A stretch of 64,000 nt of DNA from a bacterium (GTDB lineage Bacteria > Patescibacteriota > Minisyncoccia > UBA6257 > 02-FULL-45-10c), in assembly GCA_030700025.1 (NCBI GenBank), contig JAUYKI010000015.1:28623-92622 (forward strand), in the 5' to 3' direction. This document shows positions 16,017 through 60,476 of the stretch, piece by piece (position 1 is the stretch's first letter; each line of letters begins with the position of its first letter). The position numbers and the translations under genes were made by a program. The notes below the pieces were generated by a model. That model did no database searches. It was not told the DNA's origin and saw only the letters and a program-made list of their open reading frames with translations.

Positions 16017-17726
16017 TTAACGCTGACGCTTTTTAACAATGTAAGAATCGTCTTCAAAAACTATTTCACCGGGCACTTGTTTATAAATAAGATCTTTATC
16101 TTTCTGGTAATACACCAGGTAATCCACATGGTATTTCTCCAAATAATGATTAAATTCAACCGGGTCCGGATTAAGCCGTTTGGCGCGAATCGGCCCGAAA
16201 TCATATGGGGTATATTCCAGCAGGGTAGCGGGCGTAAAATCCCGGCCTAAAATCTTGGCTTTAATTTTATTTATAACATTATCTTTTTGCAATGCGGAAT
16301 TAAAAGCTTGGCCGAAAACCCGCGTCTGCTGTTGCTCAAGATTATCAGTAATATATTGATAAGTAACGTCCCAATAAATATAGCGGTCTAGCAATTCTTC
16401 CGTCGGCATCAGTTGCAATTCTTGGCTCGGATGAAAATATAAATAATTATTCGTTAATAAATTAATGTCGTTTCCCAGATCCTTCGGGGCATACACCACT
16501 TTATCGCGAATTTGATTCGCCAAAAACCAGTCCACGACCGCATCCGCCCGGCCGCCGACATAAGTTTCTGCGGTGGCCGGATTGTTTATTTGCGGATCGC
16601 TGATAATTAAATAAGCCTTATTAGCTGCCATCCCAACCGCTACTAAAATAAAAATGGCGGTGGCGATTTTTTTATAGGAGCCGAAATAATTGCTTACGAT
16701 AAAAACTATACCGCCCCAAAAAGCAACAAAAAAGAACAAAAGGGTGGGCAAATAATGCGAATTAAATTCTAGCTGCATTCCGGTAATTATCTGCTGATTA
16801 AGAACCATTAGTCCGGCAACCAGCCCCATGGCAATCTTATCTAAAGTCCCTTCGGTAACTGCCTTCATATCTAGTTTCGGAAAAATATATTTTCGTAATA
16901 CAAAAAAGGCTATTAATGAAGCAATTAAAAAGGCCTGAGTATATAAACCGGCCGGCCAACGGCTATATAAAGCGCCGATCCGAACCATGCTTTCTTTGTA
17001 ATAAGCTAACTGGCTGATCTGCAACAGGTGGATAACATACCAGGAAGCCACGCCGGCAATAATTAAATATTTATACAAGTATTTCCAAATAATTTTTCTT
17101 GCCTGCCAAAACATCCAGCAATCGCTGGCCGCTAAAAGCGCCAAGGCGAAAGTCCAATAATATGGATAAACATAAAATAGCGATCCGGCCAAAACAGCCA
17201 ATCCGATTTCTCGTTTCCAAAATTTTAAATTCGAAAAATAAAAAATAAAAAATAATGCTAATGGAATAAAGTTTATCTCGGGGCTCAAGGTTCGGCCCCA
17301 ATCCAGCCGAGGAATAAAAATATAGGCGGCAGCGGCTAAATAACCGAAATAATGAAAATTAAAAATTACCAAAAACGCGTTTATTAAAAGCGCCATAATT
17401 ACAAAGACCGCCAAATAGCCGGTGATTAAGGCGTAAAATTTTACATCCAGTCCCAATGCGCTTTTAAATAGCCCGGCGGCATGAATGTTTAAAGCCGGAT
17501 ACAAATACGGCTGATAACGCCACTCGGAAAGATACGGGCTGCCCAATTGCCAATTGCCCTTAGAGCTCTCATTAATCAATGATAGATAATAATTAAATCC
17601 GCTGACCTGCTTGGTATTCAAATAATTATCAAAAACAATAGCCTGGGTAAGGTCAAGCTGAATTATGACCGTAAACAAAAGGCTTAAAATCAATATAGTA
17701 TAAATGGATTTTGTTGGGGGGGGCAT
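16017..17726 (-). CDS. Polytopic membrane protein with a C-terminal extracytoplasmic domain (putative GT-C-like glycosyltransferase)
   Basis: About 12 hydrophobic helices plus a C-terminal domain of about 170 aa. A C8 tract lies at codons 2–4 (MPPPT). Confidence 0.45.
   Translation of the reverse strand: MPPPTKSIYTILILSLLFTVIIQLDLTQAIVFDNYLNTKQVSGFNYYLSLINESSKGNWQLGSPYLSEWRYQPYLYPALNIHAAGLFKSALGLDVKFYALITGYLAVFVIMALLINAFLVIFNFHYFGYLAAAAYIFIPRLDWGRTLSPEINFIPLALFFIFYFSNLKFWKREIGLAVLAGSLFYVYPYYWTFALALLAASDCWMFWQARKIIWKYLYKYLIIAGVASWYVIHLLQISQLAYYKESMVRIGALYSRWPAGLYTQAFLIASLIAFFVLRKYIFPKLDMKAVTEGTLDKIAMGLVAGLMVLNQQIITGMQLEFNSHYLPTLLFFFVAFWGGIVFIVSNYFGSYKKIATAIFILVAVGMAANKAYLIISDPQINNPATAETYVGGRADAVVDWFLANQIRDKVVYAPKDLGNDINLLTNNYLYFHPSQELQLMPTEELLDRYIYWDVTYQYITDNLEQQQTRVFGQAFNSALQKDNVINKIKAKILGRDFTPATLLEYTPYDFGPIRAKRLNPDPVEFNHYLEKYHVDYLVYYQKDKDLIYKQVPGEIVFEDDSYIVKKRQR
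17716..17723. repeat. Homopolymeric G8 (C8 on the coding strand) tract at codons 2–4 of the membrane protein gene
   Basis: Counted directly: gttGGGGGGGGcat. Confidence 0.9.
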
Positions 17727-17849
17727 AATTTTAATTAACCTAATTACTCTAATTAACCTAATGAATGTCTAATTTCTAATGACTAAAATTTAGGCATTGG
17801 TCATTGGGATTTGATTAAAATAATTAGAAATTAGGTTAATTAGAATAAT
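17727..17849. promoter_or_regulatory. AT-rich intergenic region with three copies of a 13-mer (TAATTAACCTAAT twice direct at 17732 and 17750, once inverted at 17830) and many CTAAT repeats
   Basis: Read directly. The region lies upstream of the 16017..17726 gene start. It resembles regulator binding sites but no specific site is recognised. Confidence 0.3.
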
Positions 17850-18719
17850 TTAATTTGCTTGTTTTCTAGCTAATATTAGCATATTATCCCCCAAATAAAG
17901 CTTCAGAGCAAAGGTGCCCAGCGCGGGAAATCGTTCTAAAAATAACGTAATCCACCGCCAAATAAAAATTCGTTGATACCGATAAAGAAAATTGAATATA
18001 TACTGCAAAGAAAAGGTCTTATGAATAGTCCGTATTTCTAAAATATCAAATTTATTATTCTCTAAAAATAATTTAATATTGCGATTATTAAAATAACTGA
18101 TATGTTCCGGCGGCAGCCAGGTATGCCACTTTGTTCCGAAAATCCTTGCCCACCAGCTAGCGGTATTAACCGTAATAATCGCCAAAGTGCCGTTAGCCGC
18201 CAGAAGCTTACGGATCGCTCCGGCATTATCAGCCAACTTATCTTGGGGAAGGTGTTCAAAAAAATCAAAGGCGGTAATAACGTCAAAAGACTCCGGCGAA
18301 AAACTGGCGCTTAGCAAATCACCCTGGGTTATTTTTCTCCCGCGAAAGCGCCCCTCTTCTACTGAAGAAGCGTTTAAATCTATTCCTTCAGCTAAATAAC
18401 CGCTCCGGGCAGCAACGTCTAAAAAATAACCGTTGGCAGTGCCAAGATCCAGCAATCGCCGGCCCAAATTATGCGATTGAATTTTTTTTAATAAATTTGT
18501 ATATACCGAAAACATCGGGGCCTTGTCGGCTTCATAATCCACATATCCCCGCCCCTCATTATCGTGAAGGTAAATCGGATTATTATAATAATCCGCTAAA
18601 TTAATATGGGCGGTGTCCACAAAAATAAACCCGCAATTCGGACATTTAAAAAATAAAAAAATCTCTTTACTGAACGAGGCAGGGCAATTTTGGTTTCCGC
18701 AAATGGAACAGGTTTTCAT
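17850..18719 (-). CDS. Class I SAM-dependent methyltransferase with an N-terminal Cys4 zinc ribbon
   Basis: CSICGNQNC...CPNCG, then LLDLGTANGYF and a DV.T motif. Confidence 0.65.
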   Translation of the reverse strand: MKTCSICGNQNCPASFSKEIFLFFKCPNCGFIFVDTAHINLADYYNNPIYLHDNEGRGYVDYEADKAPMFSVYTNLLKKIQSHNLGRRLLDLGTANGYFLDVAARSGYLAEGIDLNASSVEEGRFRGRKITQGDLLSASFSPESFDVITAFDFFEHLPQDKLADNAGAIRKLLAANGTLAIITVNTASWWARIFGTKWHTWLPPEHISYFNNRNIKLFLENNKFDILEIRTIHKTFSLQYIFNFLYRYQRIFIWRWITLFLERFPALGTFALKLYLGDNMLILARKQAN

Positions 18720-18727: not shown

Positions 18728-19852
18728 TTAGTCAGCGGTCTGAATAATTTTTATAAATGCCGCGGCAGAATTCCGAATATCATACCGCTTCACCCAATCC
18801 AATAATAAAATTTTCATTAATGCCAGATCGGATGGTTTTTTATATAATAATGCTTTAACTTTATCAGCAAATTGCCCCGTATCGCCAACTCGCGCCAAAT
18901 AACTATGCATTGGCTCCGGCGTTATCTCCCGAACCCCGCCGATATCGCTCGCCACAAATGGAACTGCGGCCGCCATAGATTCCAATAGAACATGCGGAAA
19001 GCCCTCTTCATCAGACGGCATTATAAACAAATCGGCAGCCGCATAATAATAAGGCAGCTGATTATTCGGCACCCAGCCTAAAAATCGAACTTTATCCAAC
19101 AGTTTGTAATTTGTGATTTGTGATTTAATGCTTTCTCGTTCTGGGCCATCGCCAATTACCACCAATACCGCATTTTCGTCTTGAAGGGCCTTTAATATTT
19201 CAGGCAAATAATGCGCTCCTTTACGTTGGGATAAACGATGAACAAAAAGCAAAACTTTGGCGTCTTCCGGAATTTTTAATTCTTGTTTTATTTCTCCAAT
19301 TTTGATTTTTGATTTTTGATTTTTGATTTTTTCTATATCTACCCAGTTAGGCATGACTTTAATTTTATTCTCGCGAATAGCATAATGCGCGGCATACTCT
19401 TTTTTTAAGCTTTCCGTTCCGGTAACTAGAAAATCGATAAATCGATACGCCAATCTCTCTAATTGATTTCTTAAAAAATTCTTCCGGTAAAGCCACGGCA
19501 AGCCGCAATTCCAATAAAAAACTTTTCCTCCCAAAATCCCGCTGATTAACGACGCGTTAAAAGCGGCGACGAAAGAATAGTGGATATAAAAATTTTGGCA
19601 GCCGGACATCCGCGCCTTCGCCAAAAGAATAAGATTTTCCAGCCAGCGTAACGGGAGAAAATGGAATTTTTGAATAAACTTTTTAAACCCCGCCGAGTCC
19701 CCCTTCCCCCTTTCCGCAATCAAAAAAATATCGGCGCTTTGAGCTAGCAAATCCAACATCTTATATATTGAATAAAAGTGAGTTGCCGTTTCCAGGTTAT
19801 ATTCCGGCACAACAAAGCAAATTTTCAGTTTTTCCATATGGCTAGCGGGCAT
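18728..19852 (-). CDS. GT4 family (GT-B) glycosyltransferase
   Basis: The C-terminal domain has the ...FIMPS.EEGFP...ESMA... (E-x7-E) region. The gene contains two heptanucleotide arrays. Confidence 0.75.
   Translation of the reverse strand: MPASHMEKLKICFVVPEYNLETATHFYSIYKMLDLLAQSADIFLIAERGKGDSAGFKKFIQKFHFLPLRWLENLILLAKARMSGCQNFYIHYSFVAAFNASLISGILGGKVFYWNCGLPWLYRKNFLRNQLERLAYRFIDFLVTGTESLKKEYAAHYAIRENKIKVMPNWVDIEKIKNQKSKIKIGEIKQELKIPEDAKVLLFVHRLSQRKGAHYLPEILKALQDENAVLVVIGDGPERESIKSQITNYKLLDKVRFLGWVPNNQLPYYYAAADLFIMPSDEEGFPHVLLESMAAAVPFVASDIGGVREITPEPMHSYLARVGDTGQFADKVKALLYKKPSDLALMKILLLDWVKRYDIRNSAAAFIKIIQTAD
19103..19126. repeat. Heptanucleotide tandem array (TTTGTRA)x3 inside the GT4 coding sequence, encoding KSQITNYKL
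   Basis: Read directly; translation confirmed in frame. Confidence 0.85.
19301..19328. repeat. Heptanucleotide tandem array (TTTGATT)x4 inside the GT4 coding sequence, encoding KIKNQKSKIKI
   Basis: Read directly; translation confirmed in frame. Confidence 0.9.
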
Positions 19853-24581: not shown

Positions 24582-25913
24582 TTAAAGATTGCTGATTCGT
24601 TCTAAAACTCTTTCAAGATTTCTCCAGGCATCAAAAATAGTATTCAAAATTAAAAACAAGCTTACATAAAGGGCGGATTTCCAAGCAAGGCGGCCGCTTA
24701 ATAATTCCCGCAAGCCATAACCGGCAAACACCGCAAAAAATGGGTAAACCAGCATCCGATATCGCGTCTCTACGATAATGCCCACCACCGCCAATGGCAT
24801 CATGATTAATAAGGCGGTTAAAAATTGGGCTCGGGTTTTATCGGCGCCCGCCAAATTCTTAATTTTAAGGATTCCCCAAAATCCTAAAATAAATAAAATT
24901 GCGGAATATATCGCGGAAAGCGCTAGCGTCAATCCCCTGCTTAAACCGTGCAAATGAAACCAAAAACCGGTCGGCCGGGCGAAACTAAAATAAATGGAGA
25001 TTCTGTAAAAAGTTATTTTTAAAAATTCCAAAGGGTGGAATGCCATAAATTTTAAAGTTTCCTTGGTTAATTGCCGGCTGCCGGCCACCAAGCCATATTG
25101 TTCCAGGTATTGATCGGCCAGCGGATAAGGCTCTAATTCGCCGGTGGCGCCCAAGTGGTTGCCGGCCAGCAAATCCACGCCATAGGCTAAATTAGTGGGA
25201 ACAAACGCGTTAAAAACAATATAATTCCGAATAATCCAGGGCGTAAAAATAATGGCTGCTCCGCAAAGAACTAATAATCCGTGATTCCATTGTTTGGCGC
25301 GAAAACAGTAAAATAAAATCGGCAGAAAAAGAAATAGCGCGGGAGTCCGGACGCTTCCCGCCGCCCCCATCGCTAAACCCAATAATAAAATTATCGGCCA
25401 AGAGCGCCGCTGGCTATTAAAATAACGGAAAAATAAATAAGCGCTGAGGGTAATCAAAAAAACTCCCAGCGTTTCCGTCATCAGCATTCCCTGCATAGTA
25501 ATCAAATCCGGAGAAAAACCGATTAAAACAGCGGCAACAATTCCCGCGGAAAAACTCCAATTATCTTTAAAAACCTGCCTGCTAACTCCAAAAACTAGCA
25601 GGGCCGAAAGGGCCAAAAGAAAAGCCTGGATAACCCAAATTACTTCATAGCTATAGCCAATAATAAAATAAATTGCCGCCAGAAAGAATTCGTATCCCGG
25701 ACCCACCCGCATAATAGAGTTATCCTGATCCAGCGGGCCCTCTAAAGACCCCCGATAACCGTTACCGGCGACAATATTCCGGGCAATGCTATCATAAGCG
25801 CGGGCATCTACCGCCGGCGGAATTCTGAAATAAAATGAATAGGCCAAACCGCAGATAAATACCCCCAACAACACTGCCGCCAAAATTAATTTTTGATTTT
25901 TGCTTAATTCCAT
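24582..25913 (-). CDS. GT-C fold membrane glycosyltransferase (ArnT/PMT-like, GT39/GT83-type)
   Basis: An Asp-rich motif in the first loop (VDARAYDSIARNIVAGNGY) and a polytopic topology. Confidence 0.5.
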   Translation of the reverse strand: MELSKNQKLILAAVLLGVFICGLAYSFYFRIPPAVDARAYDSIARNIVAGNGYRGSLEGPLDQDNSIMRVGPGYEFFLAAIYFIIGYSYEVIWVIQAFLLALSALLVFGVSRQVFKDNWSFSAGIVAAVLIGFSPDLITMQGMLMTETLGVFLITLSAYLFFRYFNSQRRSWPIILLLGLAMGAAGSVRTPALFLFLPILFYCFRAKQWNHGLLVLCGAAIIFTPWIIRNYIVFNAFVPTNLAYGVDLLAGNHLGATGELEPYPLADQYLEQYGLVAGSRQLTKETLKFMAFHPLEFLKITFYRISIYFSFARPTGFWFHLHGLSRGLTLALSAIYSAILFILGFWGILKIKNLAGADKTRAQFLTALLIMMPLAVVGIIVETRYRMLVYPFFAVFAGYGLRELLSGRLAWKSALYVSLFLILNTIFDAWRNLERVLERISNL

Positions 25914-27010: not shown

Positions 27011-27134
27011 CCCACACATAACAAAGACTGCGAAGCTTTTCGCAAATCCTTGCCTTTTAATTTAATGCGGCATTTTGATTTTACCATCATAGTTATTAGC
27101 TTAGATATCCTATGGTCTTTGTTATGTGTGGGAT

Positions 27135-30723: not shown

Positions 30724-31929
30724 TTATTTTACCATCTTTACGGCACCAGCCGATTCTAGGCAATCCCTGTATTGTTTCCAATATTCTTCCTGCTTAGGCC
30801 AATTTTGCAATAACCTTAAAGCATTCTGTTTAAATTCCTCTCTTTTAAAAGAGTTTTCTTTCGATTCTAAAATCGCCTTGGCGAGCGCCCGCTCATCGCC
30901 CACCGGAACCACCCAGCCATCCAAATCATCAATCAATAATTCTCCCGCCAAACCAACGTCCGTCATAACTACGGGCAAGCCCGCCGCCATCGCCTCCACA
31001 ATCGTCCGTCCGTAACCTTCATAATTAGAAGTCAGTAAAAAAATATCAGCTGTTTTATAATAAGAAGCCAGATCATCAGTCCAGGGCTCAAGAATAATAT
31101 TATTTTGTAATTTGTAATTTGTAATTTGTAATTTAAGCGCTTCGTGTTTTGGTCCATTGCCCACTATTACCAATAGTGATTTAGGGTATTTCTCCGCCAC
31201 CTCCCGCATGGCCTCAATTCCCAAGCCAATATTTTTTTCTTGAGTCAGCCGGGAAGCCATCAAAATAATAAAATCGCGATCGGAATATTTTTGGCGCAAA
31301 TCTATTTTTATTTTAGCTGTTTGAATTTTTTTAACATCAACTAAAATCGGCAATACCGATATGGGGCGTAAGGTATGGGGTTTAGGATATAGGGCTAATA
31401 ATGATTGCTTGATTCGCTCACTAACAACCCGGATGCCGTCCGCGCGGGGAAGTAAAAATTTAGCCAGCCAAACCCGCAGTTTATTTTTGAAAGATTCACT
31501 ATAAAAATAAGGGCTGAAAATATCGGCGTGTATTTGCAGCTGCAAAGACAAATTGAATTTCTTTTTCAAACACCAGCCGACTAATCCCGTTTCAAAAGGA
31601 TCCTGCGCGCTTATAGCGCAATTTCTAATTTCTAATTCCCAATTTCTAATGATATTTTTCCCGATTTTATACGCGTCCCAAAAATACAATATCCGGAAGC
31701 GCGTATTGGTGGGATAAGTAAAAACATTCTCGCTAATTTGTAATTTAAAATTTATTTGTGATTTGTCCTGCCTGCCGATAAGCATGGGATTTGTGATTTG
31801 TGATTTTCGTGTTGCAAACACGATTATGTGCAGTTCTTCAAAAAGCGGGCCGTAATTGCCAATCCTTTTCCTGGCTTCAGACTTTTCATCCAATATTTGT
31901 TTATCGGTAGAGAACATTAAAACTTTCAT
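30724..31929 (-). CDS. GT4 family glycosyltransferase
   Basis: ...IFLLTSNYEGYGRTIVEAMAAGLPVV... region. Contains three heptanucleotide arrays. The start was moved to MKVLMF (ATGA overlap with the upstream gene). Confidence 0.75.
   Translation of the reverse strand: MKVLMFSTDKQILDEKSEARKRIGNYGPLFEELHIIVFATRKSQITNPMLIGRQDKSQINFKLQISENVFTYPTNTRFRILYFWDAYKIGKNIIRNWELEIRNCAISAQDPFETGLVGWCLKKKFNLSLQLQIHADIFSPYFYSESFKNKLRVWLAKFLLPRADGIRVVSERIKQSLLALYPKPHTLRPISVLPILVDVKKIQTAKIKIDLRQKYSDRDFIILMASRLTQEKNIGLGIEAMREVAEKYPKSLLVIVGNGPKHEALKLQITNYKLQNNIILEPWTDDLASYYKTADIFLLTSNYEGYGRTIVEAMAAGLPVVMTDVGLAGELLIDDLDGWVVPVGDERALAKAILESKENSFKREEFKQNALRLLQNWPKQEEYWKQYRDCLESAGAVKMVK
31104..31134. repeat. Heptanucleotide tandem array (TTTGTAA)x4 within the coding sequence, encoding KLQITNYKLQ
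   Basis: Read directly; translation confirmed. Confidence 0.9.
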
Positions 31930-33080
31930 AGATTTTTCCATATCTCTATATATCCATTAATCATCATATTGTGGGTATAAGCCATTTCTTTTTTTCGCGC
32001 TAATTCTCCCAAACGCTGGCGCAACGATTCATCAGAAATAATATCAATAAGCGTCCGCCTTAACGCGTTATAGTCATTATACGGAACCAAAAGTCCGGTT
32101 TGACCGTGAATTACAATTTCAGGATTACCGCCAACGTCCGTAGTAACTACCGGCAATCCTAAGGCCTGAGCTTCCCGTATCTGATGCGAAAGTCCTTCGT
32201 AGCCGGTATTAAGAACAAATACATCGGACGCTTTCAAATATTTTATCAATTCATTTTTAGGCAACGAACCCATTAATACCGCATTCTTTTCAATTCTGAG
32301 CTTATTAATTAAACTCTCTAAATTTGCCCGTTCCGGCCCATCGCCGATAATAAACAAATGTAAATCGGAAAATTTATTCTTTAAATCAGCCACAATTTTT
32401 ATTAACATATCAAAACCCTTCCATGGCACCAAGCGGCCGACCGAAACCAAAATAGTTCCTTGTAATCCTAAAATTCCCCTTTCCAAATCTTTGCCGCTGG
32501 TGGAAATCATCGGGGAAACCGCATTTAAGATAACGTTTATCTTTTCTGGCGCCACTCCCCAACGAACCACTATTTTTTTTAAATATTCGCTGGGAACAAT
32601 TACCAAATCCGAACCATCGGCTACCCAGCTCCGAATCCACTTCAATCCCTCCACCACCCAATGATATTTTTTCTTGGTATCCTGAAAGTCATCAATAGAA
32701 TCCTGAACTCTAAACCGCTGCGCTCCCTGTTCCCAGGCGTAATCACCGACTGCTTTTAAGATAAACTTCCGATGCAAGAATTTATTCGCTAAAAATGCTG
32801 GCAAGCCCGCGCTAACCGGATCTTGGGCAAAAATAATATCCGCTTTCCGCCCCAGCTGCCACACTTTTAAAAAATAAATAAAGTGTCGTAATCCCTTGGG
32901 AATGTGGCGGGAAACCCTGCGAATATTAGACGGGTCGCCTTTTTGAGATTCTCCATAAGAAAGCGCGATTACTTTAAAACCCCGCTTCGGCAATTCTTCC
33001 AAAAGCAATTTAGTAAAAGTTGCCGGCCCTCCGATATCCGGCGGAAAAATTCCTGTAGCGATTAAAATTGTTCTGGCCAT
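31926..33080 (-). CDS. GT4 family glycosyltransferase
   Basis: ...VFVLNTGYEGLSHQIREAQALGLPVV... region. Confidence 0.75.
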   Translation of the reverse strand: MARTILIATGIFPPDIGGPATFTKLLLEELPKRGFKVIALSYGESQKGDPSNIRRVSRHIPKGLRHFIYFLKVWQLGRKADIIFAQDPVSAGLPAFLANKFLHRKFILKAVGDYAWEQGAQRFRVQDSIDDFQDTKKKYHWVVEGLKWIRSWVADGSDLVIVPSEYLKKIVVRWGVAPEKINVILNAVSPMISTSGKDLERGILGLQGTILVSVGRLVPWKGFDMLIKIVADLKNKFSDLHLFIIGDGPERANLESLINKLRIEKNAVLMGSLPKNELIKYLKASDVFVLNTGYEGLSHQIREAQALGLPVVTTDVGGNPEIVIHGQTGLLVPYNDYNALRRTLIDIISDESLRQRLGELARKKEMAYTHNMMINGYIEIWKNL

Positions 33081-34300: not shown

Positions 34301-35428
34301 ATGAATACCAAGATAAAAGTTCTCTACGCCATAACCAAAACCGACCTGGGCGGCGCCCAGAAGTACGTTTCCGATTTAGCGGCTAATTTAGACCGCCAAC
34401 GGTTTGAGGCTAAAATAATATATGGCGGCCAAGACTTAAGATGGCTTTCCAACCGAGTCTGGCCATGGGCTTTATTTCTAAATGATTGGCTGGCGATTTT
34501 AGAATTGCGAAAATTCTACAAAAAAGAACAGCCCCAAATTGTCCACCTTAATAGTTCTAAGGCGGGAATTATCGGTTCCTTAGCGGCTATTTTAATTTCG
34601 CCGCGCCCCAAAATTATTTTTACCGCCCATGGATGGGTATTTAATCCTACCAACGCCCTGTCATTGGCCGTTCGCTGGTTTTATATCTTATTGCATAAAA
34701 TTGCGGCATTCTTCCAAGATCATATTATCTGCGTTTCAGAATACGATCATCAATTAGCGCTGCGCTATCATATCGCGCCTCCAAAAAAAATTACCACTAT
34801 TCACAATGGCATTGATTCCGGATTAAAGTTTTTGGATAAAGAAAGCGCCAAACGGGACATTATTAAAATAATTCCAAATTCTAAATTCCAGATTCTAGAT
34901 TCTAAATTGCCCTGGATTGGCTCCATCGGCCGGTTAGTCAAAGAAAAAAATTATGAAACCCTGATTGAAGCCGCCGCGATAATACCCAATGCTTGCTTTT
35001 TTATTATCGGGAGCGGATCAGAACAACGTAATTTAGAATCCCGAATTAAAAATTTAAAACTAGAAAAGCGGTTTTTCTTGCTTAACCCATCGGGCAATGA
35101 TGCCCAATATTTAAAAGCTTTCGATATTTTTGCCATGTCCTCCATCAAAGAGGGGTTGCCCTATATCCTCATGGAAGCGATGCTGGCAGAACGCCCCATA
35201 ATTATTACGGAGGCGGGCGGCATGCCGGAGATGATCAAAAACCACGAAAATGGATTAATGGTGGCCCAAAAAAATCCTAAAATGCTCGCTCAAGCAATAA
35301 GCGGATTATTAGAAAATCCGGCCATCGCCCAATCTTTAAGCCAAACGGGCAAAAAAGTGGTTCGGGATAAATTTAGTTTGCAAAAAATGATTTTCGAAAC
35401 AAAACAGGTATATCAAAACCTGCTATAA
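34301..35428 (+). CDS. GT4 family glycosyltransferase
   Basis: ...IFAMSSIKEGLPYILMEAMLAERPII... region. Contains a heptanucleotide array. Confidence 0.75.
   Translation: MNTKIKVLYAITKTDLGGAQKYVSDLAANLDRQRFEAKIIYGGQDLRWLSNRVWPWALFLNDWLAILELRKFYKKEQPQIVHLNSSKAGIIGSLAAILISPRPKIIFTAHGWVFNPTNALSLAVRWFYILLHKIAAFFQDHIICVSEYDHQLALRYHIAPPKKITTIHNGIDSGLKFLDKESAKRDIIKIIPNSKFQILDSKLPWIGSIGRLVKEKNYETLIEAAAIIPNACFFIIGSGSEQRNLESRIKNLKLEKRFFLLNPSGNDAQYLKAFDIFAMSSIKEGLPYILMEAMLAERPIIITEAGGMPEMIKNHENGLMVAQKNPKMLAQAISGLLENPAIAQSLSQTGKKVVRDKFSLQKMIFETKQVYQNLL
34873..34907. repeat. Degenerate heptanucleotide tandem array (CYARATT)x5 within the coding sequence, encoding PNSKFQILDSKL
   Basis: Read directly; translation confirmed. 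Confidence 0.85.
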
Positions 35429-52180: not shown

Positions 52181-52293
52181 ACGCTTACGCTAATGAAATG
52201 CTAATATACTAATTCATACTAATAATACTAATTAAATTGGTATAATTCGCATGTATTAGTATATTGGTATTACACTATTAGATTAGCAAAAAA

Positions 52294-52494: not shown

Positions 52495-52710
52495 TTACAA
52501 GCTATCTATATCCGCCTCCAAGCCCTGGAGTTCGGCATCCACATCGCCCAAATCAACGGCGTTCAAATCCTGGTCAATCGCCACAGTCGTGTCTTCTTCG
52601 GAAACAGTTTCCGGAGCAATGGCCGGCTGTTGGTTCCACCACCACAAAGCCACGGCCAATAAAACAACTACGACTACCCAAATCCAAGTTTTAGATTTTT
52701 GTGATTCCAT
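52495..52710 (-). CDS. Small protein of 71 aa with one transmembrane helix and an acidic C-terminal tail
   Basis: WIWVVVVVLLAVALWWW hydrophobic segment. No similarity recognised; it may be real or spurious. Confidence 0.3.
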   Translation of the reverse strand: MESQKSKTWIWVVVVVLLAVALWWWNQQPAIAPETVSEEDTTVAIDQDLNAVDLGDVDAELQGLEADIDSL

Positions 52711-52830
52711 CCCTCACCCTTGAAAGGCCTAACGCGTTTCCGCGTTTTTGTTTCAAGGTTAATTTAAATTTATAATTTTATCGACATTTTTAAATATAAT
52801 ACATCAATTCTAATCCCAGCCTTTCAAAGG
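52711..52830. repeat. Intergenic element bounded by an 18-bp inverted repeat (tccctcacccttgaaagg / cctttcaaaggtgaggga, one mismatch) around about 80 bp of AT-rich DNA
   Basis: Read directly. Confidence 0.4.
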
Positions 52831-52848
52831 TGAGGGATTTTATCGCGA

Positions 52849-53609: not shown

Positions 53610-54863
53610 TTAATTAGACGACTTTAATATAAAGTATAACACATCCGATAATTTTTCAGTATCTTTTTTACTCGTTCCCCGGCCGAAAGTAATCCGCAAT
53701 CCGGCGCTGGCCCGCTGGTCCGAATAGCCCAAAGCTTTTAAAACATGCGATGGCTTGCAAATCCGGGCGGCGCAAGCCGCGCCCGGGGAAACCGCGAATC
53801 CTGCCAAATCCAGCTTGATAATTAAATCCTGGGCCGTTTCTTGGCCGGGAAAATATAAATTAACATTATTCGGCAAACGCCTTTCTAAATCCCCGTTTAA
53901 TTCTGCTTTGGGCAAAATAGTTTTAATCCGGTTCAAAAAATATTTTTGTAAATCCCTTAATCGCTTGGCTTCTTTGGCCCGATCCCTATCGGCAATTTCC
54001 ATAGCCTTGGCAAAGCCAATAATGCCGGGAACATTCTCTGTTCCTCCGCGCAATCCCGATTCCTGTCCGCCGCCGGTAATCAGCGGTTGTACCGCTGAAA
54101 AATCCGAAATTCGAATATCGAAATTCGAAATGTTTTGAGTTTTAGATTTTGAATTTTGAATTTGTTTGTGATTTGTGATTTGGAATTTGGAATTTTTCCT
54201 GACATAGAGAAGCCCAACTCCTTTGGGCCCGTAAATTTTTTGAGAAGATAAAGTCATTAAATCTACTCCCAGCCGCTGAACATTGCAATCTAAATAATTA
54301 AATGCCTGGGCCGCGTCAGTATGAAAAAGCGGATATCCGCCGTTAGCCGCCTTGTTTTTCTTGAATTCCGAAATTATTTTGCTGATTTCCAGAATCGGCT
54401 GGATTGTTCCGACTTCATTATTGGCATACATTATGGAAACTAAAATAGTCCGGTCGTCCAAAGCAATTCGGAATTTTTTTAAATCCACAATTCCCTTTTT
54501 ATCTACCGGCAAATAAACCACTTCCACGCCATCCCTCTCCAGCTCTAAACAAGTTTCTAAAATTGATTCGTGTTCCACCGCGGAGATAATAATTTTCGGA
54601 CGGCTGATATTTTTAACCGCGCCCCGCAACGCCAAATTATTCGCCTCGGTCGCTCCGGAAGTAAAAACTATTTCTTTATAATGGCATCCTAAAATCTCCG
54701 CGGCCTTCTGGCGGGCATTAAATACCGCCGCCGACGCTTCCTGGCCAAACCAATGCAAAGCCCCGGGATTGCCGTAGATTTTTCTAAAATACGGCCGCAT
54801 GGCTTTCTCCGCCCGCGGATCCACGGGTGTCGCCGCCGCGTAATCAAAGTAATGTCTGCGCAT
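53610..54863 (-). CDS. Cysteine desulfurase (IscS/NifS family, class V aminotransferase) carrying an inserted low-complexity loop of about 33 aa
   Basis: SSQKIYGPKGVGLLYVRK (PLP-lysine region) and AVSPGAACAARICKPSHVLKALG (catalytic Cys loop). The insert between YVRK and GGGQE is encoded entirely by a heptamer array. Confidence 0.8.
   Translation of the reverse strand: MRRHYFDYAAATPVDPRAEKAMRPYFRKIYGNPGALHWFGQEASAAVFNARQKAAEILGCHYKEIVFTSGATEANNLALRGAVKNISRPKIIISAVEHESILETCLELERDGVEVVYLPVDKKGIVDLKKFRIALDDRTILVSIMYANNEVGTIQPILEISKIISEFKKNKAANGGYPLFHTDAAQAFNYLDCNVQRLGVDLMTLSSQKIYGPKGVGLLYVRKNSKFQITNHKQIQNSKSKTQNISNFDIRISDFSAVQPLITGGGQESGLRGGTENVPGIIGFAKAMEIADRDRAKEAKRLRDLQKYFLNRIKTILPKAELNGDLERRLPNNVNLYFPGQETAQDLIIKLDLAGFAVSPGAACAARICKPSHVLKALGYSDQRASAGLRITFGRGTSKKDTEKLSDVLYFILKSSN
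54097..54201. repeat. Array of about 15 phased heptanucleotide units (sub-families TCGAAAT, RTTTTGA, TGTGATT, TGGAATT), 105 nt in total, encoding a 35-aa insertion in the cysteine desulfurase
   Basis: Units parsed directly. The 7-nt phase is kept across all sub-families. The translation is KNSKFQITNHKQIQNSKSKTQNISNFDIRISDFS. Confidence 0.85.
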
Positions 54864-54867
54864 AATT

Positions 54868-55929
54868 TTATTGTAACTCATTCAATTGTTTTTGGATTTT
54901 ATATCCTTGGCAATGTTTTAACAAGCCCAAATAAGATTGTAAATTTTTGCCATTAATTTTTCTCAATAACCTTCTTTTTGTCTTAGTTCTTAAAATTCTA
55001 TAGTGGGGTCTTGCGATATATCCTAAAAAATCAATTCCTTGGGAAAATTTCCGAATAATTATCTTATTCGGATGTAGGGTTAAATTTAAATTATCCGCTA
55101 AAAACTTGCTTACTTTATCTGTAATTCCTATAAAATTCTCTTTTGTATCGCTTAAAACAACAAAGTCGTCGCAATAACGGAGATAATGTTTAATTTTTAA
55201 TTTATGCTTAATAAATTGGTCCAATTCATTTAAATAGATGTTGGCAAAAAGCTGGCTGGTTACGTTGCCAAGTGGCAATCCTTTGTCCGGATTTTTTTCA
55301 AAACTTTTTATAACTTTTTCAATAAGCCAAATGTCTTTTGGGTCAAAAATTTTCTTTTTGATTAAATTCAATAAAATTTGCTGGTCAATAGAATCAAAAA
55401 ACTTACTGATATCGCACTTTAAAACAAAAACCGGCTTGCAGTAATTCTTGCTCAATTTCCGAAGAAAAATTCCTAACCGTTCTACCGCGATATGCGTCCC
55501 CTTGCCCAGCCGCGATGAATCAGAATCGTAAATAAAACCCTTATCAAAAATCACGTATAAAATCCGAAAAATTGCTTGGTGCAAGACCCGGTCTCGGACG
55601 CTGGCTTTATGAATATGCCGCAATTTCGGGTCTTGAACATAAAAAGCTGTGTATAAATCAGGTTTGTAAATTTTATCCTTTAATTCCTGATGAAGTTGAA
55701 ATAAATTGTCTTCCAGATTAAACTCAAATTGCTGAACGTCCGATTTTTTCCTTTTTCCGCGCCGGAATTCTTTCCACGCTAAAAATAAATTTTCCAGCGA
55801 AATTATCCGTTCAAAAATATTATGACTTTTAATACCCCCCCCCCTCCAAATTTGCCTCTGATTCATAAGCTTGATGAATTCTATCGCAATATCTATCTGC
55901 TCGGCAAGCAAATTCCGAAACGGGATCAT
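54868..55929 (-). CDS. Diversity-generating retroelement (DGR) reverse transcriptase
   Basis: RT motifs 1–7 are present. These include DISKFFDSID and the DGR-type motif 4 GLPLGNVTSQLFANIYL (I/LGxxxSQ where other RTs have QGxxxSP). Also present are YLRYCDDFVV (YxDD) and LHPNKIIIRKFSQGIDFLGY. Similarity is closest to Bordetella phage bRT as recalled from memory. The true start is probably internal (about 55866) or near the G10 tract. Confidence 0.9.
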   Translation of the reverse strand: MIPFRNLLAEQIDIAIEFIKLMNQRQIWRGGGIKSHNIFERIISLENLFLAWKEFRRGKRKKSDVQQFEFNLEDNLFQLHQELKDKIYKPDLYTAFYVQDPKLRHIHKASVRDRVLHQAIFRILYVIFDKGFIYDSDSSRLGKGTHIAVERLGIFLRKLSKNYCKPVFVLKCDISKFFDSIDQQILLNLIKKKIFDPKDIWLIEKVIKSFEKNPDKGLPLGNVTSQLFANIYLNELDQFIKHKLKIKHYLRYCDDFVVLSDTKENFIGITDKVSKFLADNLNLTLHPNKIIIRKFSQGIDFLGYIARPHYRILRTKTKRRLLRKINGKNLQSYLGLLKHCQGYKIQKQLNELQ

Positions 55930-56181: not shown

Positions 56182-56204
56182 ATAACTCCGATTAAGGAGT
56201 TATT
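56181..56204. other. 9-bp stem hairpin (aataactcc-GATTAA-ggagttatt) between the Avd stop and the TR
   Basis: Read directly. Confidence 0.4.
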
Positions 56205-56208
56205 TATA

Positions 56209-56580: not shown

Positions 56581-56609
56581 TTAAGGGTTCAAGTCAAAAG
56601 ATTCAAGGG

Positions 56610-57347
56610 TTAAACAGAAACTACTGCGCGAGCCCGCAAATCACCACTGGCGCTGCCCGGACCGTACCAGCCGACCCCGAGCCAGCGACCGATCGGACCC
56701 CAATCCACGCACGGCACGCTGCCATCAGGATAGCGCGAACCAGCGCAAAGTGTCCAATTCTTTTCATCCAGGTGTTTATTAGTTTCCAGGAAATACTTGA
56801 GTTCCAGGAGCAGACGCTCTTCCAGGGCGATGCCATTGATTTGCTCTTTGGCCAAGTCATTGGCTGACTTGTTCTTGAGCTCTTCGTCGGCTTCCTGGCG
56901 GTCTCTGACCCAGATGGCGTAGGTTTCGCCGGTGTTTCGGACCGAAGTGATGGAATTGAGATTGTTCGTGCAGGTCCAAACGCTCATGTGTTTCCTTAGG
57001 ACTTGGACAATCTGATTGAGGGTCAATCCCTTGGCAACGACAATCAACCAATCAATGCCCGGAACACGCTTTGGGGGCTGGATTTTTGAGATATCCAGCT
57101 CAATGCCAAATTCCTGGCGGTAGAGGGTTTGCCAGGCGCGAAGCATTGCTCGCACACTCTGGCCGGGTCGGGTCTGCTTTTCTTTGATGACAGAAGCTGT
57201 TGCTTCCGCGAAATTCGGATTCTCCTTAATTCGCTGAAGCGCCCCGGACACCTGATCCGGATCGCGCTTGCCATCCCGCACCAGCTCCAGCACCGTAGTC
57301 ACCAAATCCAGCAGCCGCGCTTTCTTTCGTTCGGTTCTTGCGAACAT
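56610..57347 (-). CDS. DGR target (variable) protein. The N-terminal region is uncharacterised. The C-terminal region ends in the VR and may be C-type-lectin/FGE-like.
   Basis: The C-terminus is ...NWTLCAGSRYPDGSVPCVDWGPIGRWLGVGWYGPGSASGDLRARAVVSV. The start was set at ATG 57347 (MFARTERKK), preceded by AAGGAG. The gene is markedly GC-richer than the neighbouring RT and Avd. Confidence 0.8.
   Translation of the reverse strand: MFARTERKKARLLDLVTTVLELVRDGKRDPDQVSGALQRIKENPNFAEATASVIKEKQTRPGQSVRAMLRAWQTLYRQEFGIELDISKIQPPKRVPGIDWLIVVAKGLTLNQIVQVLRKHMSVWTCTNNLNSITSVRNTGETYAIWVRDRQEADEELKNKSANDLAKEQINGIALEERLLLELKYFLETNKHLDEKNWTLCAGSRYPDGSVPCVDWGPIGRWLGVGWYGPGSASGDLRARAVVSV
56617..56744 (-). other. 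DGR variable repeat (VR) forming the last 43 codons of the target gene
   Basis: 104 of 128 positions are identical to the TR. All 24 mismatches are at TR adenines (A to G/T/C in the coding sense). It ends 5 nt before the stop. Confidence 0.85.
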
Positions 57348-57426
57348 TTTTGTTCTCCTTAGTTCTTTCACATCTGTCCAAATCCGGTTATCGCGGATTG
57401 GTATCTGATTTTGAAAGAACGTTCCT

Positions 57427-58211: not shown

Positions 58212-58778
58212 ATGGATAAATTAGTCTTAGACATAGAAACTAAAAATACTTTTGCCGAAGTCGGCGGGCAAGAAAACATCCACAAATTGGAGGTATCTTT
58301 TGTCGGCGTTTATTCTTACAACCAAAACCAATATTTTTCTTTTTTTGAAAATGAATTGGATAAGCTGGGCCCAATGCTCCAAAGCGCCGGCTTAATAATC
58401 GGATTCTGTTCTAACCGCTTTGACCTGCCGGTTTTAAAAAAACATTACAAATTTAATATCATGTCTCTGGAAAGCCTGGATATTTTGGAAGAAATTGAGG
58501 AAAGGCTCGGCCACCGGATCAGCCTAAACGAATTGGCCTACGCCAATTTGAGAACCCAAAAAACCGCCCACGGATTGGAAGCGATTAAATTTTATAAAGA
58601 AGGCCGGCTGGAAGAATTAAAAAAATATTGCCTGAACGACGTAAAAATCACCAAAGACCTTTATGACCTGGGAATGTCCCAGGGTCACTTAGTCGTTCCC
58701 CAAAGAACTACCGGCGAAATGCAAAAAGTGGAATTTGACTGGCATACCCGATTGCCTTCGGCGTCTACCCTATTTTAA
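58212..58778 (+). CDS. Predicted 3'-5' exonuclease (RNase-H-like / DEDD-type, YprB/PolB-exo-like)
   Basis: N-terminal LVLDIETKNTF (Exo I-like DxE), with later acidic motifs. Confidence 0.4.
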   Translation: MDKLVLDIETKNTFAEVGGQENIHKLEVSFVGVYSYNQNQYFSFFENELDKLGPMLQSAGLIIGFCSNRFDLPVLKKHYKFNIMSLESLDILEEIEERLGHRISLNELAYANLRTQKTAHGLEAIKFYKEGRLEELKKYCLNDVKITKDLYDLGMSQGHLVVPQRTTGEMQKVEFDWHTRLPSASTLF

Positions 58779-59796
58779 AACGCTTTATCCGTTTTAGCTC
58801 CTGATTCAGGAGTTTTTTATTTTTCGCTTCTATATTGATTCTTAAAAGCGGTTCGGTATTGGAAGCTCTAATATTAAACCAGTGGTCCGGAAACTCTGCC
58901 GTTAAGCCATCTAACTTAGAAATTTTCGCTTTTTGTTTTTTATAATATTGTTCTACTCTTTCCAAACTTTTAACTTTTAACTTTTCGCTTTTAACTTTAA
59001 GGTTGATTTCCCCGCTCCGGTAATACTTCGGCGATTTGTCCAGATATTCAGAAACTGGAATGTTTAATTTAGAAACAAAATTTATAATATGAATTGCCGC
59101 TAAAATACCCGAGTCCCAGACCGTGTCTGGTCCGCCTCTGGCGGAAAAATCTGGAAATCCAAAATAATAATGGCCGGAATGTTCCAGGCCCAGCGGAATC
59201 TTTTTCTCCCGCATCAGCTTTTTGAAAAAATAATGGCCGACGCGTGAAACGCTAACTTTTGACTTATAACCATTAACTATTAACTTTCTAATAAGTTGAC
59301 CGGAGATAACGCTGACGATATAAGATTTTGGCTTTAGCTCTTGCAGTAATAAATAACCGGTTTCGTCCGGACTGATTACTCTGCCCAAATTGTCTACCAA
59401 AAACATTCTGTCGCCGTCGGCGTCAAAAATCACGCCCAAGTCCGCGTGGTGTTTTAATACGGCTTTTTGTAGTTGGCTAATCGCTCCCGGCGCCAGCGGA
59501 TTCGGCCCATGCCCGGGAAAATGACCGTCGGGTTTATCGTTGATAAAAACAATTGACAATTGACAATTAACAATTAACTTCCGGAAAAGTTCTTTTAGAA
59601 CTTTTCCGGTTGTGCCGTTGGAACAATCAAAAACTATTTTTAACGGCTTGCCCTGAGCCTGCTTGCCCCGCTGTGGCGGTGGTCGAAGGAGTCTTAAAAA
59701 TCGTTTTAAATACTTAACGTATAAACCCGCGTAATCCATATGATTATTATACAGAAAATAAAAAACTCCGCGCATTACGGAGTTAGGCATAGCCAC
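58765..59796 (-). CDS. Phosphohexomutase (phosphomannomutase/phosphoglucomutase) C-terminal fragment, domains II–IV
   Basis: FDCSNGTTG, FDADGDR (Mg2+ loop), GLEHSGHYYF (sugar-binding loop) and RASNTEP (phosphate-binding loop). Its likely independent start is MDYAGLYVKYLK at about 59738, preceded by TATAAT. Contains three heptamer arrays. Confidence 0.7.
   Translation of the reverse strand: MAMPNSVMRGVFYFLYNNHMDYAGLYVKYLKRFLRLLRPPPQRGKQAQGKPLKIVFDCSNGTTGKVLKELFRKLIVNCQLSIVFINDKPDGHFPGHGPNPLAPGAISQLQKAVLKHHADLGVIFDADGDRMFLVDNLGRVISPDETGYLLLQELKPKSYIVSVISGQLIRKLIVNGYKSKVSVSRVGHYFFKKLMREKKIPLGLEHSGHYYFGFPDFSARGGPDTVWDSGILAAIHIINFVSKLNIPVSEYLDKSPKYYRSGEINLKVKSEKLKVKSLERVEQYYKKQKAKISKLDGLTAEFPDHWFNIRASNTEPLLRINIEAKNKKLLNQELKRIKRFKIG
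58965..58999. repeat. Heptanucleotide tandem array (AACTTTT)x3 plus 2 degenerate units in the phosphohexomutase coding sequence, encoding KVKSEKLKVKS
   Basis: Read directly; translation confirmed. Confidence 0.85.
59551..59578. repeat. Heptanucleotide tandem array (AATTGAC)x2(AATTAAC)x2 in the phosphohexomutase coding sequence, encoding VNCQLSIVF
   Basis: Read directly; translation confirmed. A further phased stretch lies at 59251–59292. Confidence 0.85.
59761..59784 (-). terminator. Hairpin (aactccg-TAATGCG-cggagtt) plus T-run on the minus strand, directly after the small ORF stop
   Basis: 7-bp stem followed by TTTTTTATTTT on the minus strand. Confidence 0.5.
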
Positions 59797-60019
59797 CGGC
59801 TTCTTCTTGCTGGATAGCGCTTAACACTTCTTCTAATTTCCCTTCCCGGATATGGTCAATCGGACGCTGATTGCCGATAAAAGCGTTGTGGCCGTGAAGC
59901 CAATTCAACGCGGTTTCCGGATTATACATATTTAAAAGCCGTTGGAAAATACTCAAAATTCGCAAAGACCTTAAAATCTCTTCTTCCGAGTCCCAGCTTA
60001 AAACTATCTTTTCTCCCAT
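59783..60019 (-). CDS. Small ORF of 78 aa resembling the C-terminal toxin-binding domain of DUF2384 (Xre/MbcA/ParS-type) antitoxins. It is inserted between the two phosphohexomutase fragments.
   Basis: YNPETALNWLHGHNAFIGNQRPIDHIREGKLEEVLSAIQQEEAGGYA fits the DUF2384 pattern A..WL...N.AL.G..PIDLL....G...V...L..IE.G.YA. It has its own GAGGGAGG RBS and a terminator hairpin. Confidence 0.5.
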   Translation of the reverse strand: MGEKIVLSWDSEEEILRSLRILSIFQRLLNMYNPETALNWLHGHNAFIGNQRPIDHIREGKLEEVLSAIQQEEAGGYA

Positions 60020-60089
60020 CTCTGCCTCCCTCGGGCGTCCCGCTTGGCGGGATTAGCTCTACAACTTTCAAGAACAAAATTATTTTAAA

Positions 60090-60476
60090 CTATTTTTTAA
60101 ATAAAAGCAAAATTTCCTTCCCACTAATCGGTTTGGCGTTTTTCCCAACCACCTTCAGCCCGTTAAAATTTTTCGGATTATGGGAAGCCGTAACCATAAT
60201 CCCTCCGCTCGCCTTCAGCTTATTCACCAAAAAATAAAACATGGGGGTTGTTGTCATTCTAACGTTCTTAAGAACGTTAGAATGTTGCAAGCCCTTTAAA
60301 ACCGCCTTATAAAGCGCCGGCGAACTCAAACGCGCGTCATGGGCAACAACTATCCTCTTTCCTAAAAGCTTAGGTAACTTTATCGCTATCGCGGAAACCA
60401 CCCTTTCATTTATCTCTCTCGGGTATTGCCCCCTGATATCATAGGCTTTAAAAATTTTCTCATTCATTACTTCCAT
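60090..60476 (-). CDS. Phosphohexomutase N-terminal fragment (domain I with the active-site serine loop)
   Basis: IFKAYDIRG..., GIMVTASHNP (TASHNP phosphoserine motif). It ends at a TAG about 70 nt upstream of the small ORF. Confidence 0.7.
   Translation of the reverse strand: MEVMNEKIFKAYDIRGQYPREINERVVSAIAIKLPKLLGKRIVVAHDARLSSPALYKAVLKGLQHSNVLKNVRMTTTPMFYFLVNKLKASGGIMVTASHNPKNFNGLKVVGKNAKPISGKEILLLFKK

Follow-up and report, generated by a model that had tools for sequence, protein, structure and literature searches.

The 64-kb stretch of DNA analysed here (contig JAUYKI010000015.1, positions 28,623 to 92,622; hereafter the window) carries tandem heptanucleotide arrays that are read through as coding sequence (CDS), and this 7-nt register is a lineage feature of the Parcubacteria/Candidate Phyla Radiation (CPR), not something confined to a single gene cluster. 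The window holds 11 exact period-7 runs of 17 nt or more, whereas 200 dinucleotide-preserving shuffles of the same sequence gave 0.18 ± 0.41 (maximum 2), so that the excess put forward in an earlier reading of the letters alone (the original prediction) holds at this composition. The same scan found no exact run at periods 8–15, and when periods were compared at equal stringency (at least 12 matched positions for every period), period 7 gave six arrays, period 6 one, and every other period none. The longest array in the window has 5.6 units. All 11 arrays lie in CDS and each is translated, which is unremarkable by itself because 92.5% of the window is coding; of the two properties that had been called unusual, density proved to be so and coding placement did not.

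Homologues of two array-bearing window proteins, a cysteine desulfurase and a family 4 glycosyltransferase (GT4), come from Harrison-, Wolfe-, Colwell- and Liptonbacteria and from ‘Paceibacterota’, and the host is therefore a Parcubacteria/CPR bacterium. For a comparison at equal stringency, loci around cysteine desulfurase genes and GT4 orthologues were fetched from CPR and non-CPR genomes. The CPR loci (370 kb) held 26 period-7 and 13 period-14 arrays, with at most three arrays at any other period, whereas the non-CPR loci (1.03 Mb) held six and two, respectively, with a flat distribution across periods, which makes periods 7 and 14 ~14-fold denser in CPR than in non-CPR loci. Nearly all arrays in the surveyed loci span 27–34 nt, i.e. 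4–4.9 units, and the units are diverse, including AGCGCCA, GCTTCAA, AAAGGTC and ACCAACA. The search of related genomes that had been proposed as a check thus showed period-7 arrays recurring in CPR loci, and doing so at the same sites in orthologues. One relative, L081 (GCA_020724845.1), is syntenic with the window at 42–62 kb.

A literature search found no paper on heptanucleotide repeats in Parcubacteria, CPR or Patescibacteria. Intragenic heptanucleotide simple sequence repeats (SSRs), heptamer over-representation and in-frame palindromic elements are all known as separate components; what we could not find described, and what is apparently new, is a CPR-wide, period-7-specific excess in CDS, the conservation of array sites with turnover of their units, and a heptamer-periodic hairpin element found across phyla.

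Heptamer arrays in glycosyltransferase genes

The first GT4 gene of the window (18728..19852, minus strand) encodes a 374-aa protein (Pfam Glycos_transf_1, 5.7e-40) that is 100% identical to a protein from a metagenome-assembled genome (MAG) at NCBI (P0121, on a 94-kb contig). Both arrays predicted in this gene are real and lie inside its open reading frame (ORF). Array 1 (19103..19126, minus strand; plus strand TTTGTAATTTGTGATTTGTGATTT) reads (AAATCAC)2(AAATTAC)1.4, encodes KSQITNYK (aa 243–250) and is recovered by Tandem Repeats Finder (TRF) as TTTGTGA ×3.4 with 94% matches. Array 2 (19300..19331, minus strand) reads (AAAATCA)×4.6 on the coding strand, encodes EKIKNQKSKIKI (aa 174–185) and is returned by TRF as TTTTGAT ×4.6 with 100% matches. 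In an AlphaFold model of the protein (predicted local distance difference test, pLDDT, 92.7 overall), array 1 falls within helix 239–248, after the GDGP motif (pLDDT 98), while array 2 corresponds to helix 173–180 and the linker preceding the C-terminal Rossmann domain (pLDDT ~88). An alignment with 29 orthologues revealed no real length insertion at either array, array-less orthologues being 2 aa shorter at site 2, and the idea that the array peptides are inserted loops had to be given up: they form a helix and a helix plus linker.

At the DNA level, the two sites are periodic in orthologues as well. At site 2, the window and two orthologues (L084, L085) carry (AAAATCA)×4.4–4.6, a third orthologue (L086) carries (AAAGGTC)×4.9, and a fourth (L087) carries (AGAAATC)2(AGGAATC)3; unit number is thus equal and unit sequence different in orthologues that are ~50% identical, with all copies in an array changing together. 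At site 1, orthologues have period-7 arrays built from AAATCAC/AAATTAC, GAATCAA/GAATTAT or GTCAATT/GTTAAAT. Because units are homogenised within arrays and differ between orthologues, they must turn over, and because the site is conserved while its units are swapped in parallel, the repeat belongs to the DNA itself and is not explained by a conserved peptide whose coding sequence happens to look periodic. Orthologues that share the peptide KIKNQKSKIKI share it together with an identical DNA array, (AAAATCA)4.5; five orthologues with this array occupy scattered positions in the gene tree, where their sisters have either no array or one with another unit. Judged from these sequences, heptamer arrays seem either to evolve in concert or to be repeatedly reborn at a few protein-tolerated sites.

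These observations bear directly on a protein-level or compositional artefact, in which conserved K/N/I/Q-rich helices in an AT-rich genome would give DNA that is only seemingly periodic. The helix at site 1 is indeed conserved, many orthologues having similar peptides there, and the A-rich codons of the arrays are typical of the genome. The shuffles nonetheless effectively refute this explanation, the enrichment being at period 7 and not at 3, 6 or 9; units are identical at synonymous positions, and orthologues change all units in parallel. The closest repeat-less orthologue, which should show an identical peptide if the segment were conserved for its own sake, reads EKFKPSST instead. We consider such an artefact highly improbable.

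The second GT4 gene (30724..31941, minus strand; 405 aa) encodes a protein ~25 aa longer than its homologues and contains three repeats, all on the minus strand. The first, a perfect (AAATTAC)×4.4 array (31104..31134; KLQITNYKLQN), shares its structural position, the helix after GxGP, with 19103–19126 in the paralogous GT4; directly before it stands AAACACGAAGCGC, similar to the beginning of an arm of the dispersed element described below. The second is an imperfect array of ATTAGAA/ATTGGGA units (31620..31650; IRNWELEIRNC), whose loop reads IRNWELEIRN in the window and IGNWKLEIGN or MGNGKWEMGN in orthologues. The third (31734..31808) is composite, with AAATCAC/AAATTAC heptamers around a 22-nt GC-rich piece (CCATGCTTATCGGCAGGCAGGA), and constitutes a ~16-aa insertion relative to nearly all homologues. 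In the third GT4 gene (34301..35428), an imperfect period-7/14 array of AATTCCA/AATTCTA/GATTCTA units (34870..34908, plus strand) encodes IIPNSKFQILDSKL in the interdomain linker.

Most of the coordinates listed in the original prediction correspond to real period-7 sequence, including, beyond the first GT4 gene, those at 31104–31134, 31620–31650, 31788–31806, 34870–34908, 54100–54195, 58965–58999 and 59548–59578. Two proved weak: 59251–59292 has a 2.7-unit core, and 25887..25905 (minus strand), about two units of AAAAATC at the N-terminus of a GT39/PMT-like protein, is neither in the TRF output nor among the exact period-7 runs and was not counted as an array. Two more, 31734–31808 and 54097–54201, are composite rather than simple, and the latter differs in kind from the other arrays, being a hairpin-forming copy of a dispersed palindromic element. 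Conversely, a (TTATTTT)×3.1 array on the coding strand of a predicted membrane protein gene (17234..17255, minus strand, in 16017..17726; LFFIFYFS) was absent from that list. The original placement of most arrays in genes for glycosyltransferases and sugar-nucleotide enzymes is only partly right: 6 of the 11 arrays sit in the three GT4 genes, which represent 15.7% of the coding length, and in L084 all eight arrays (8/8) are in GT4 genes. The remaining window arrays are found in phosphomannomutase, cysteine desulfurase and the membrane protein, and none of the 11 in the GT2, GT-C/PMT, epimerase, methyltransferase or sugar-nucleotide enzyme genes of the window.

A dispersed hairpin element in a cysteine desulfurase gene

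The repeat at 54097..54201 (minus strand) lies within a gene for a class-V aminotransferase/cysteine desulfurase of 423 aa (53610..54881, minus strand; Pfam Aminotran_5, 9.5e-67; homologues are named cysteine desulfurase). It is a truncated copy, lying in frame, of a dispersed element that forms a long hairpin, and it behaves like a small palindromic repeat that is dispersed and tolerated within the reading frame. The copy reads (AAATTCC)2(AAATCAC)2 AAACAAATTC(AAAATTC).. CAAAAC, then ATTTCGAATTTCGATATTCGAATTTCGGATTT, then a small hairpin, CAGCGG-n5-CCGCTG, so that A-rich heptamers are followed by their near-complement ATTTCGAATTTCGATATTCGAATTTCGG. The insert adds ~30–35 aa between LLYVR and PLITGGGQE while the frame stays open, and it is lacking in the closest homologue (P0001, 82% identity) and many others. 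In the model of the protein (pLDDT 82 for the fold overall), the inserted residues 231–257 reach a pLDDT of ~40, and the low-confidence stretch extends to residue 278, across the flanking native loop (SAVQPLITGGGQE…).

Within the CDS, the element copy has TTTCGA in place of TTTTGA, which removes a TGA, and its mismatches on the coding strand are A.C, at positions where ATTTTGA would give a TGA stop. The antisense strand folds better (−29 kcal/mol, z −3.2, vs. z −1.1 for the coding strand) because the TGA removal leaves A.C mismatches on the coding strand and G.U pairs on the antisense strand. An antisense RNA, which this fold had suggested, was accordingly dropped as a candidate. Element DNA is found at the same cysteine desulfurase site in three further loci (L081, L082 and L083), and the conservation of the insert (0.59–0.78) is at least equal to that of flanking coding DNA (0.52–0.69). 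L081 carries a second copy elsewhere in its cysteine desulfurase gene. In the 64-kb window, BLAST of the element consensus found one copy only, which aligns with both element arms and is without the inner stem.

Beyond these genomes, the element is widely dispersed: its 26-mer TTTCGRATTTCGATATTCGRATTTCG has at least 120 exact matches in metagenome contigs (34–65% GC among the matches listed) and two matches in viral contigs. Full copies are ~135–155 nt long, and 18 of 18 fold as one long hairpin (z −2.9 to −6.6). RNAalifold analysis of the 18 copies gave an invariant outer stem and an unalignable inner part, hence no covariation evidence. Single-armed copies account for 35 of 82, and the ends of the element are not precisely defined. 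Among the matches listed, most copies are intergenic, often directly upstream of a start codon. One of these, in a Syntrophaceae-like deltaproteobacterium whose RecA is 87–89% identical to named proteins, is located upstream of recA. In Syntrophaceae-like deltaproteobacteria (L139, 1723–1790), the hairpin element is immediately 5′ of recA, and the RecA homologues P0454–P0467 are extended by ~30–40 aa through the element (calls of 374–389 aa vs. 342 aa), which is probably an annotation artefact due to the stop-free element. An Rfam gathering search of 15 element-bearing loci returned rRNA and tRNA only and no element family, BLAST against plasmid and phage collections gave no match, possibly through low-complexity filtering, and a literature search for the element sequence found nothing.

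ERIC and BOX are familiar intragenic repeats resembling MITEs (miniature transposable elements with inverted repeats). The closest analogue of 54097–54201 in architecture is the Rickettsia palindromic elements (RPEs), palindromic elements that occur in frame (Ogata et al. 2000, reviewed in PMC10969869). As with RPEs, a dispersed palindrome of ~100–150 nt lies in frame in an unrelated metabolic enzyme, as a fold-compatible extra surface segment. Unlike RPEs, the element has heptamer-periodic arms and a single copy in the window, and it spans Parcubacteria and a deltaproteobacterium, on contigs of 34–65% GC among the matches listed, with a mostly intergenic location outside the CPR; the likeness is one of architecture.

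This raises the question of whether all arrays could be decayed in-frame remnants of heptamer-periodic hairpin insertions of an RPE- or MITE-like kind. The cysteine desulfurase repeat is clearly such a copy, L081 has two copies in one gene, and 31734–31808 is a true insertion whose GC-rich module (GGCAGGCAGG) also adjoins element arms in L117, L146 and L154. In addition, site 1 of the P0175 GT4 (AAGCACCAAATCACAAATTACAAAC) and an element arm (AAGCACGAAATCCGAAATTCGAAAC) differ at CG positions only, the arm-like AAACACGAAGCGC stands directly before the array of the second GT4, and the window has further in-frame palindromes at 60255–60284 and 62363–62439. An origin of this kind for every array nevertheless appears quite improbable: the two arrays of the first GT4 (19103–19126 and 19300–19331) show no insertion of more than 2 aa, no complementary partner arm and no significant match to the consensus, the consensus BLAST gives a single copy in the window, and the units of the simple arrays are very diverse. 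No terminal inverted repeat with target-site duplication, no transposase and no other signature of transposition turned up, although no transposase search was made.

Different palindromic heptamer arrays are present, at three insertion sites, in other Parcubacteria cysteine desulfurases (L081 10260–10288, L213 (P0086) site 1, and P0016/P0017/P0020). One type reads AATAATG.../...CATAATT, with the peptides RIMNNELGIKN...IIHNSQFIIP; a second, seen at the protein level, encodes GLGFRVKGL...LYPNP, for which back-translation suggests TTTAGGG/CCCTAAA-type units. The protein collection holds four other window proteins, from the same 94-kb NCBI contig, but lacks the window cysteine desulfurase in the translation used here; the public record may have this enzyme with another start codon or as a pseudogene.

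A complete diversity-generating retroelement (DGR; 54868–57371, minus strand) adjoins the cysteine desulfurase gene. It comprises a reverse transcriptase (RT) ORF (54868..55929; Pfam RVT_1, 2.8e-22), a target gene (56610..57371; 253 aa, no Pfam match) with the variable repeat (VR) at its 3′ end (~56620–56740), and a template repeat (TR; ~56215–56335), the mismatches being nearly all at template adenines (24 A->G, 8 A->T). L081, the syntenic relative, has no RT at this position. Some defence RTs make tandem-repeat cDNA, and the RT gene here shares an overlap with the beginning of the cysteine desulfurase gene that bears the array, which would suit a scenario in which this or a similar RT makes tandem heptamer cDNA that is then integrated into genes. 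We find that scenario barely credible and dropped the adjacent RT as an array writer: the TR/VR pair, with mismatches specific to adenines, marks it as the enzyme of an ordinary DGR, L081 has the element at the same site and a second copy with no RT nearby, and arrays occur in many loci without RT genes.

Unit-number variation and the origin of the arrays

In silico, gain or loss of one or two units truncates the 374-aa GT4 at 185–262 aa, while gain or loss of three changes it by 7 aa in frame. Among natural sequences, L088 and L089, alleles of cysteine desulfurase that come from separate metagenome assemblies, show two single-nucleotide polymorphisms in 1228 nt, and their sole indel is one ACCAATT unit (×3 vs. 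×4), which shifts the frame; slippage thus occurs in nature, here in a housekeeping gene. In the P0298 allele, a homogenising change from AATTAGG to AATTATG creates a TGA stop within the array. At the protein level, a 7-aa indel (APAAKIS) separates P0288 from P0063 at repeat-prone site 1 of a cysteine desulfurase cluster. No unit-number change was seen in the ~40 sequences of GT4 clusters built at 90% identity. Across these clusters and the shorter GT4 homologues, no truncated homologue ends at an array, the differences being N- or C-terminal or contig-end truncations, and no in-frame variant of ±3 units was found. The window's own proteins form singleton clusters, and the ~40-sequence result concerns other GT4s. 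The short N-terminus of P0140 was rejected as an array effect, being a matter of start choice in gene calling. An ON/OFF switch through unit gain or loss, as originally proposed, is therefore borne out as a capability, by the in silico truncations and the L088/L089 pair, but not by any GT4 unit-number variant; similarly, changes of three units do stay in frame in silico, but no such variant was found, and the arrays are not the inserted loops whose length they were supposed to alter.

The units show signs that selection acts on a DNA process blind to the reading frame. Read on the coding strand, 8 of 11 units contain no stop in any of the three frames; on the complementary strand, stops would arise from 9 of 11. 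Deviant units sit where a perfect repeat would place an in-frame stop, with TAG changed to TGG at 31620 and TAA avoided at 34870.

The original prediction went further and took the arrays for contingency loci that diversify a surface glycan. In such a system, GT4 arrays of a host-attached CPR bacterium would be selected as stochastic switches, in which one unit more or less turns a gene ON or OFF. Contingency loci are typical of host-adapted bacteria with reduced genomes, and the tetranucleotide-repeat lipooligosaccharide genes of Haemophilus influenzae are well-known contingency loci. A closer precedent is the glycosyltransferase gene pglE of Neisseria meningitidis, in which phase variation is controlled by a heptanucleotide repeat (PMC7157529). 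Like pglE, the window GT4 genes contain, within a glycosyltransferase ORF, a tandem repeat whose 7-nt unit is not a multiple of 3, so that ±1 unit shifts the frame, truncating the GT4 before its catalytic C-terminal half. The enrichment of arrays in GT4 genes, both in the window and in L084, would also fit, as would the homogenised units, which suggest continuing turnover, and the one natural frameshift allele of one unit.

Other features set the window arrays apart from pglE-type loci, and no switching was seen in the GT4 genes. The tracts are 3–5 units long, lie mid-gene and encode regular, conserved structure (helices and linkers), unit number is kept across distant orthologues (~50% identity), and arrays of the same kind are found in the housekeeping genes for cysteine desulfurase and phosphomannomutase, so that siting is not confined to surface genes as it would be for contingency loci. 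The sole frameshift allele seen belongs to a housekeeping gene, and the ~40 GT4 cluster members have neither unit-number variants nor truncations that end at an array. Because the arrays are short, their unit number is conserved and housekeeping genes are also hit, adaptive glycan phase variation is unproven, and we regard selection for such switching as rather unlikely.

Our preferred explanation, held with moderate confidence, is that the arrays are slippage-born heptamer microsatellites filtered by selection, with switching as a by-product and not a demonstrated glycan-diversifying system. A DNA process in 7-nt register, most likely replication slippage, would make and homogenise arrays of ~3–5 units, and arms of the hairpin element may seed part of this process. 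Selection would then retain arrays that have a stop-free unit on the coding strand, a frame-preserving length, and a peptide placed in a tolerant surface helix, linker or loop, and the same permissive sites would consequently bear arrays in orthologues and paralogues, with differing units. The retained arrays would stay indel hot spots, at which one unit lost or gained yields a truncated null allele, a by-product capable of ON/OFF behaviour. For 54097–54201, a related yet distinct origin is envisaged, as an in-frame, internally deleted copy of a ~140-nt hairpin element with heptamer-periodic arms, which would be tolerated as a disordered loop of the cysteine desulfurase much as RPEs are in their host proteins. 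In this account, the generating role of slippage, the filtering role of selection and the absence of adaptive switching are what we infer.

Several points weigh against this explanation. We know of no mechanism that prefers 7 over 6, 8 or 9 nt, a ‘polymerase footprint’ being a hypothesis, and slippage by one unit implies frameshifted intermediates, a cost for ~4.5-unit arrays in essential genes. The identical (AAAATCA)4.5 array in five scattered orthologues is hard to square either with drift plus homogenisation or with rebirth on independent occasions. That arrays are associated with GT4 is statistically real and leaves room for adaptive GT4 switching. Finally, the L088/L089 difference is the only unit-number polymorphism found, and it comes from metagenome assemblies, in which an assembly or sequencing artefact is possible.

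Heptamers are a recurrent theme among bacterial repeats. The short tandemly repeated repetitive (STRR) sequences of cyanobacteria are heptamers, and in Nostoc, small dispersed repeats are reportedly embedded in tandem heptameric repeats, a case said to have been described by Elhai and co-workers in 2008. The repeat at 31734–31808 resembles that case, as a lead only, in having a short, GC-rich, hairpin-prone module within heptamers; it differs in phylum, in being translated, and in its apparently unrelated sequence. More generally, heptameric SSRs are over-represented in bacteria, for which a polymerase-slippage/footprint rationale has been proposed (Mrazek et al. 2007, as cited in PMC4692102), with examples such as GGGAATC in Xanthomonas and GGGGA(T/C)T in Nostoc, and with some inverted pairs that could form stem-loops (PMC4692102). 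The window arrays have in common with these a period-7-specific excess, some inverted stem-loop pairs, and slippage as a proposed source. Those repeats, however, lie between genes, are in many cases G-rich and belong to large genomes, whereas the window arrays are A/T-rich, in frame in CDS, and in reduced CPR genomes.

A bolder and, in our view, improbable alternative is an active repeat-writing system in 7-nt register in Parcubacteria/CPR, perhaps also in their sediment or groundwater neighbours. Such a system, either a polymerase property or a mobile family of heptamer-periodic hairpin elements, would overwrite the same permissive surface segments time and again with ~4.5-unit arrays and so install heptad-coded peptides and, in GT4 enzymes, evolvable ON/OFF switches. 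If it existed, repeat writing across the genome would supply selection with variants of surface glycans and enzymes, in organisms with almost no transcriptional regulation.

CPR bacteria represent a large uncultured share of bacterial diversity and have tiny genomes with few regulators. For these genomes, the in-frame heptanucleotide excess is an apparently undescribed mutational signature, one that may account for many odd low-complexity segments and length differences of CPR proteins, as well as for some apparent ‘pseudogenes’ or split genes in MAGs, and that gives a testable route to ON/OFF variation of glycosyltransferases. It also bears on the old question of why heptamers are in excess among bacterial SSRs, for which the combination of site conservation and unit turnover makes this an unusually tractable case. 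The hairpin element, common to Parcubacteria and a deltaproteobacterium, points towards horizontal spread of very small repeats across phyla. For annotation pipelines and assemblers, frameshifts and contig breaks are to be expected at heptamer arrays.

Phosphomannomutase repeats and neighbouring features

The phosphomannomutase region (58765–60476, minus strand) carries four repeats, all on the minus strand. A (GTTAATT/GTCAATT)×4.4 array (59548..59578; KLIVNCQLSIV) lies in domain II, and the syntenic orthologue in L081 has (CTAAAAG)×4 at this site. In domain IV, an imperfect (AAAAGTT)×4.9 array (58965..58999) encodes LKVKSEKLKVKSL and constitutes a 3-aa insertion relative to L081. The weak, degenerate period-7 segment with the 2.7-unit core (59251..59292; IRKLIVNGYKSKVS) has as its counterpart in L081 a clear (ACCAACA)×4 array. 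In domain I, a perfect 30-nt palindrome (60255..60284; CATTCTAACGTTCTTAAGAACGTTAGAATG) is read in frame as QHSNVLKNVRM, and L081 has (AGCGTTC)×3.6 at its site.

The gene is split in the window, with domain I encoded by one ORF (60090..60476) and domains II–IV by another (58765..59796). The ~290-bp gap between the halves holds a 78-aa ORF (59783..60019) that shows weak similarity to antitoxins of the Xre/ParS type (NCBIfam E = 3e-4, below cutoff). A two-ORF phosphomannomutase is also found in L081 and L088, without the small inserted ORF, while L083 has a single 452-aa gene.

A GDP-mannose dehydratase/epimerase gene in L086 is likewise split, by one in-frame TAA at a conserved Tyr codon (8310–8330; SP*G). 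This split was rejected as an array effect, the interruption being a point nonsense codon that reflects either a mutation or a sequencing error.

Three MITE-like inverted repeats (27009–27134, 52709–52838 and 62363–62439) share the termini ATCCC(T/A)CAC...GTG(A/T)GGGAT, and their arms are 20–21 nt long and 95–100% complementary. The last of them, 77 nt long, lies inside the ftsK CDS, where it is read in frame (NPSLLEDQEPTALEKSLNQSSKSEGL) as part of the variable linker that precedes the gamma domain. Two intergenic regions, 17725–17850 and 52191–52277, consist of nested inverted repeats of 7–9-nt tandem units. The units of the former are TAATTAACC, AATGTCT and ATTAGAATA, the latter is a palindrome with 43-nt arms, and both regions could either act as bidirectional terminators or belong to the repeat families as additional members.

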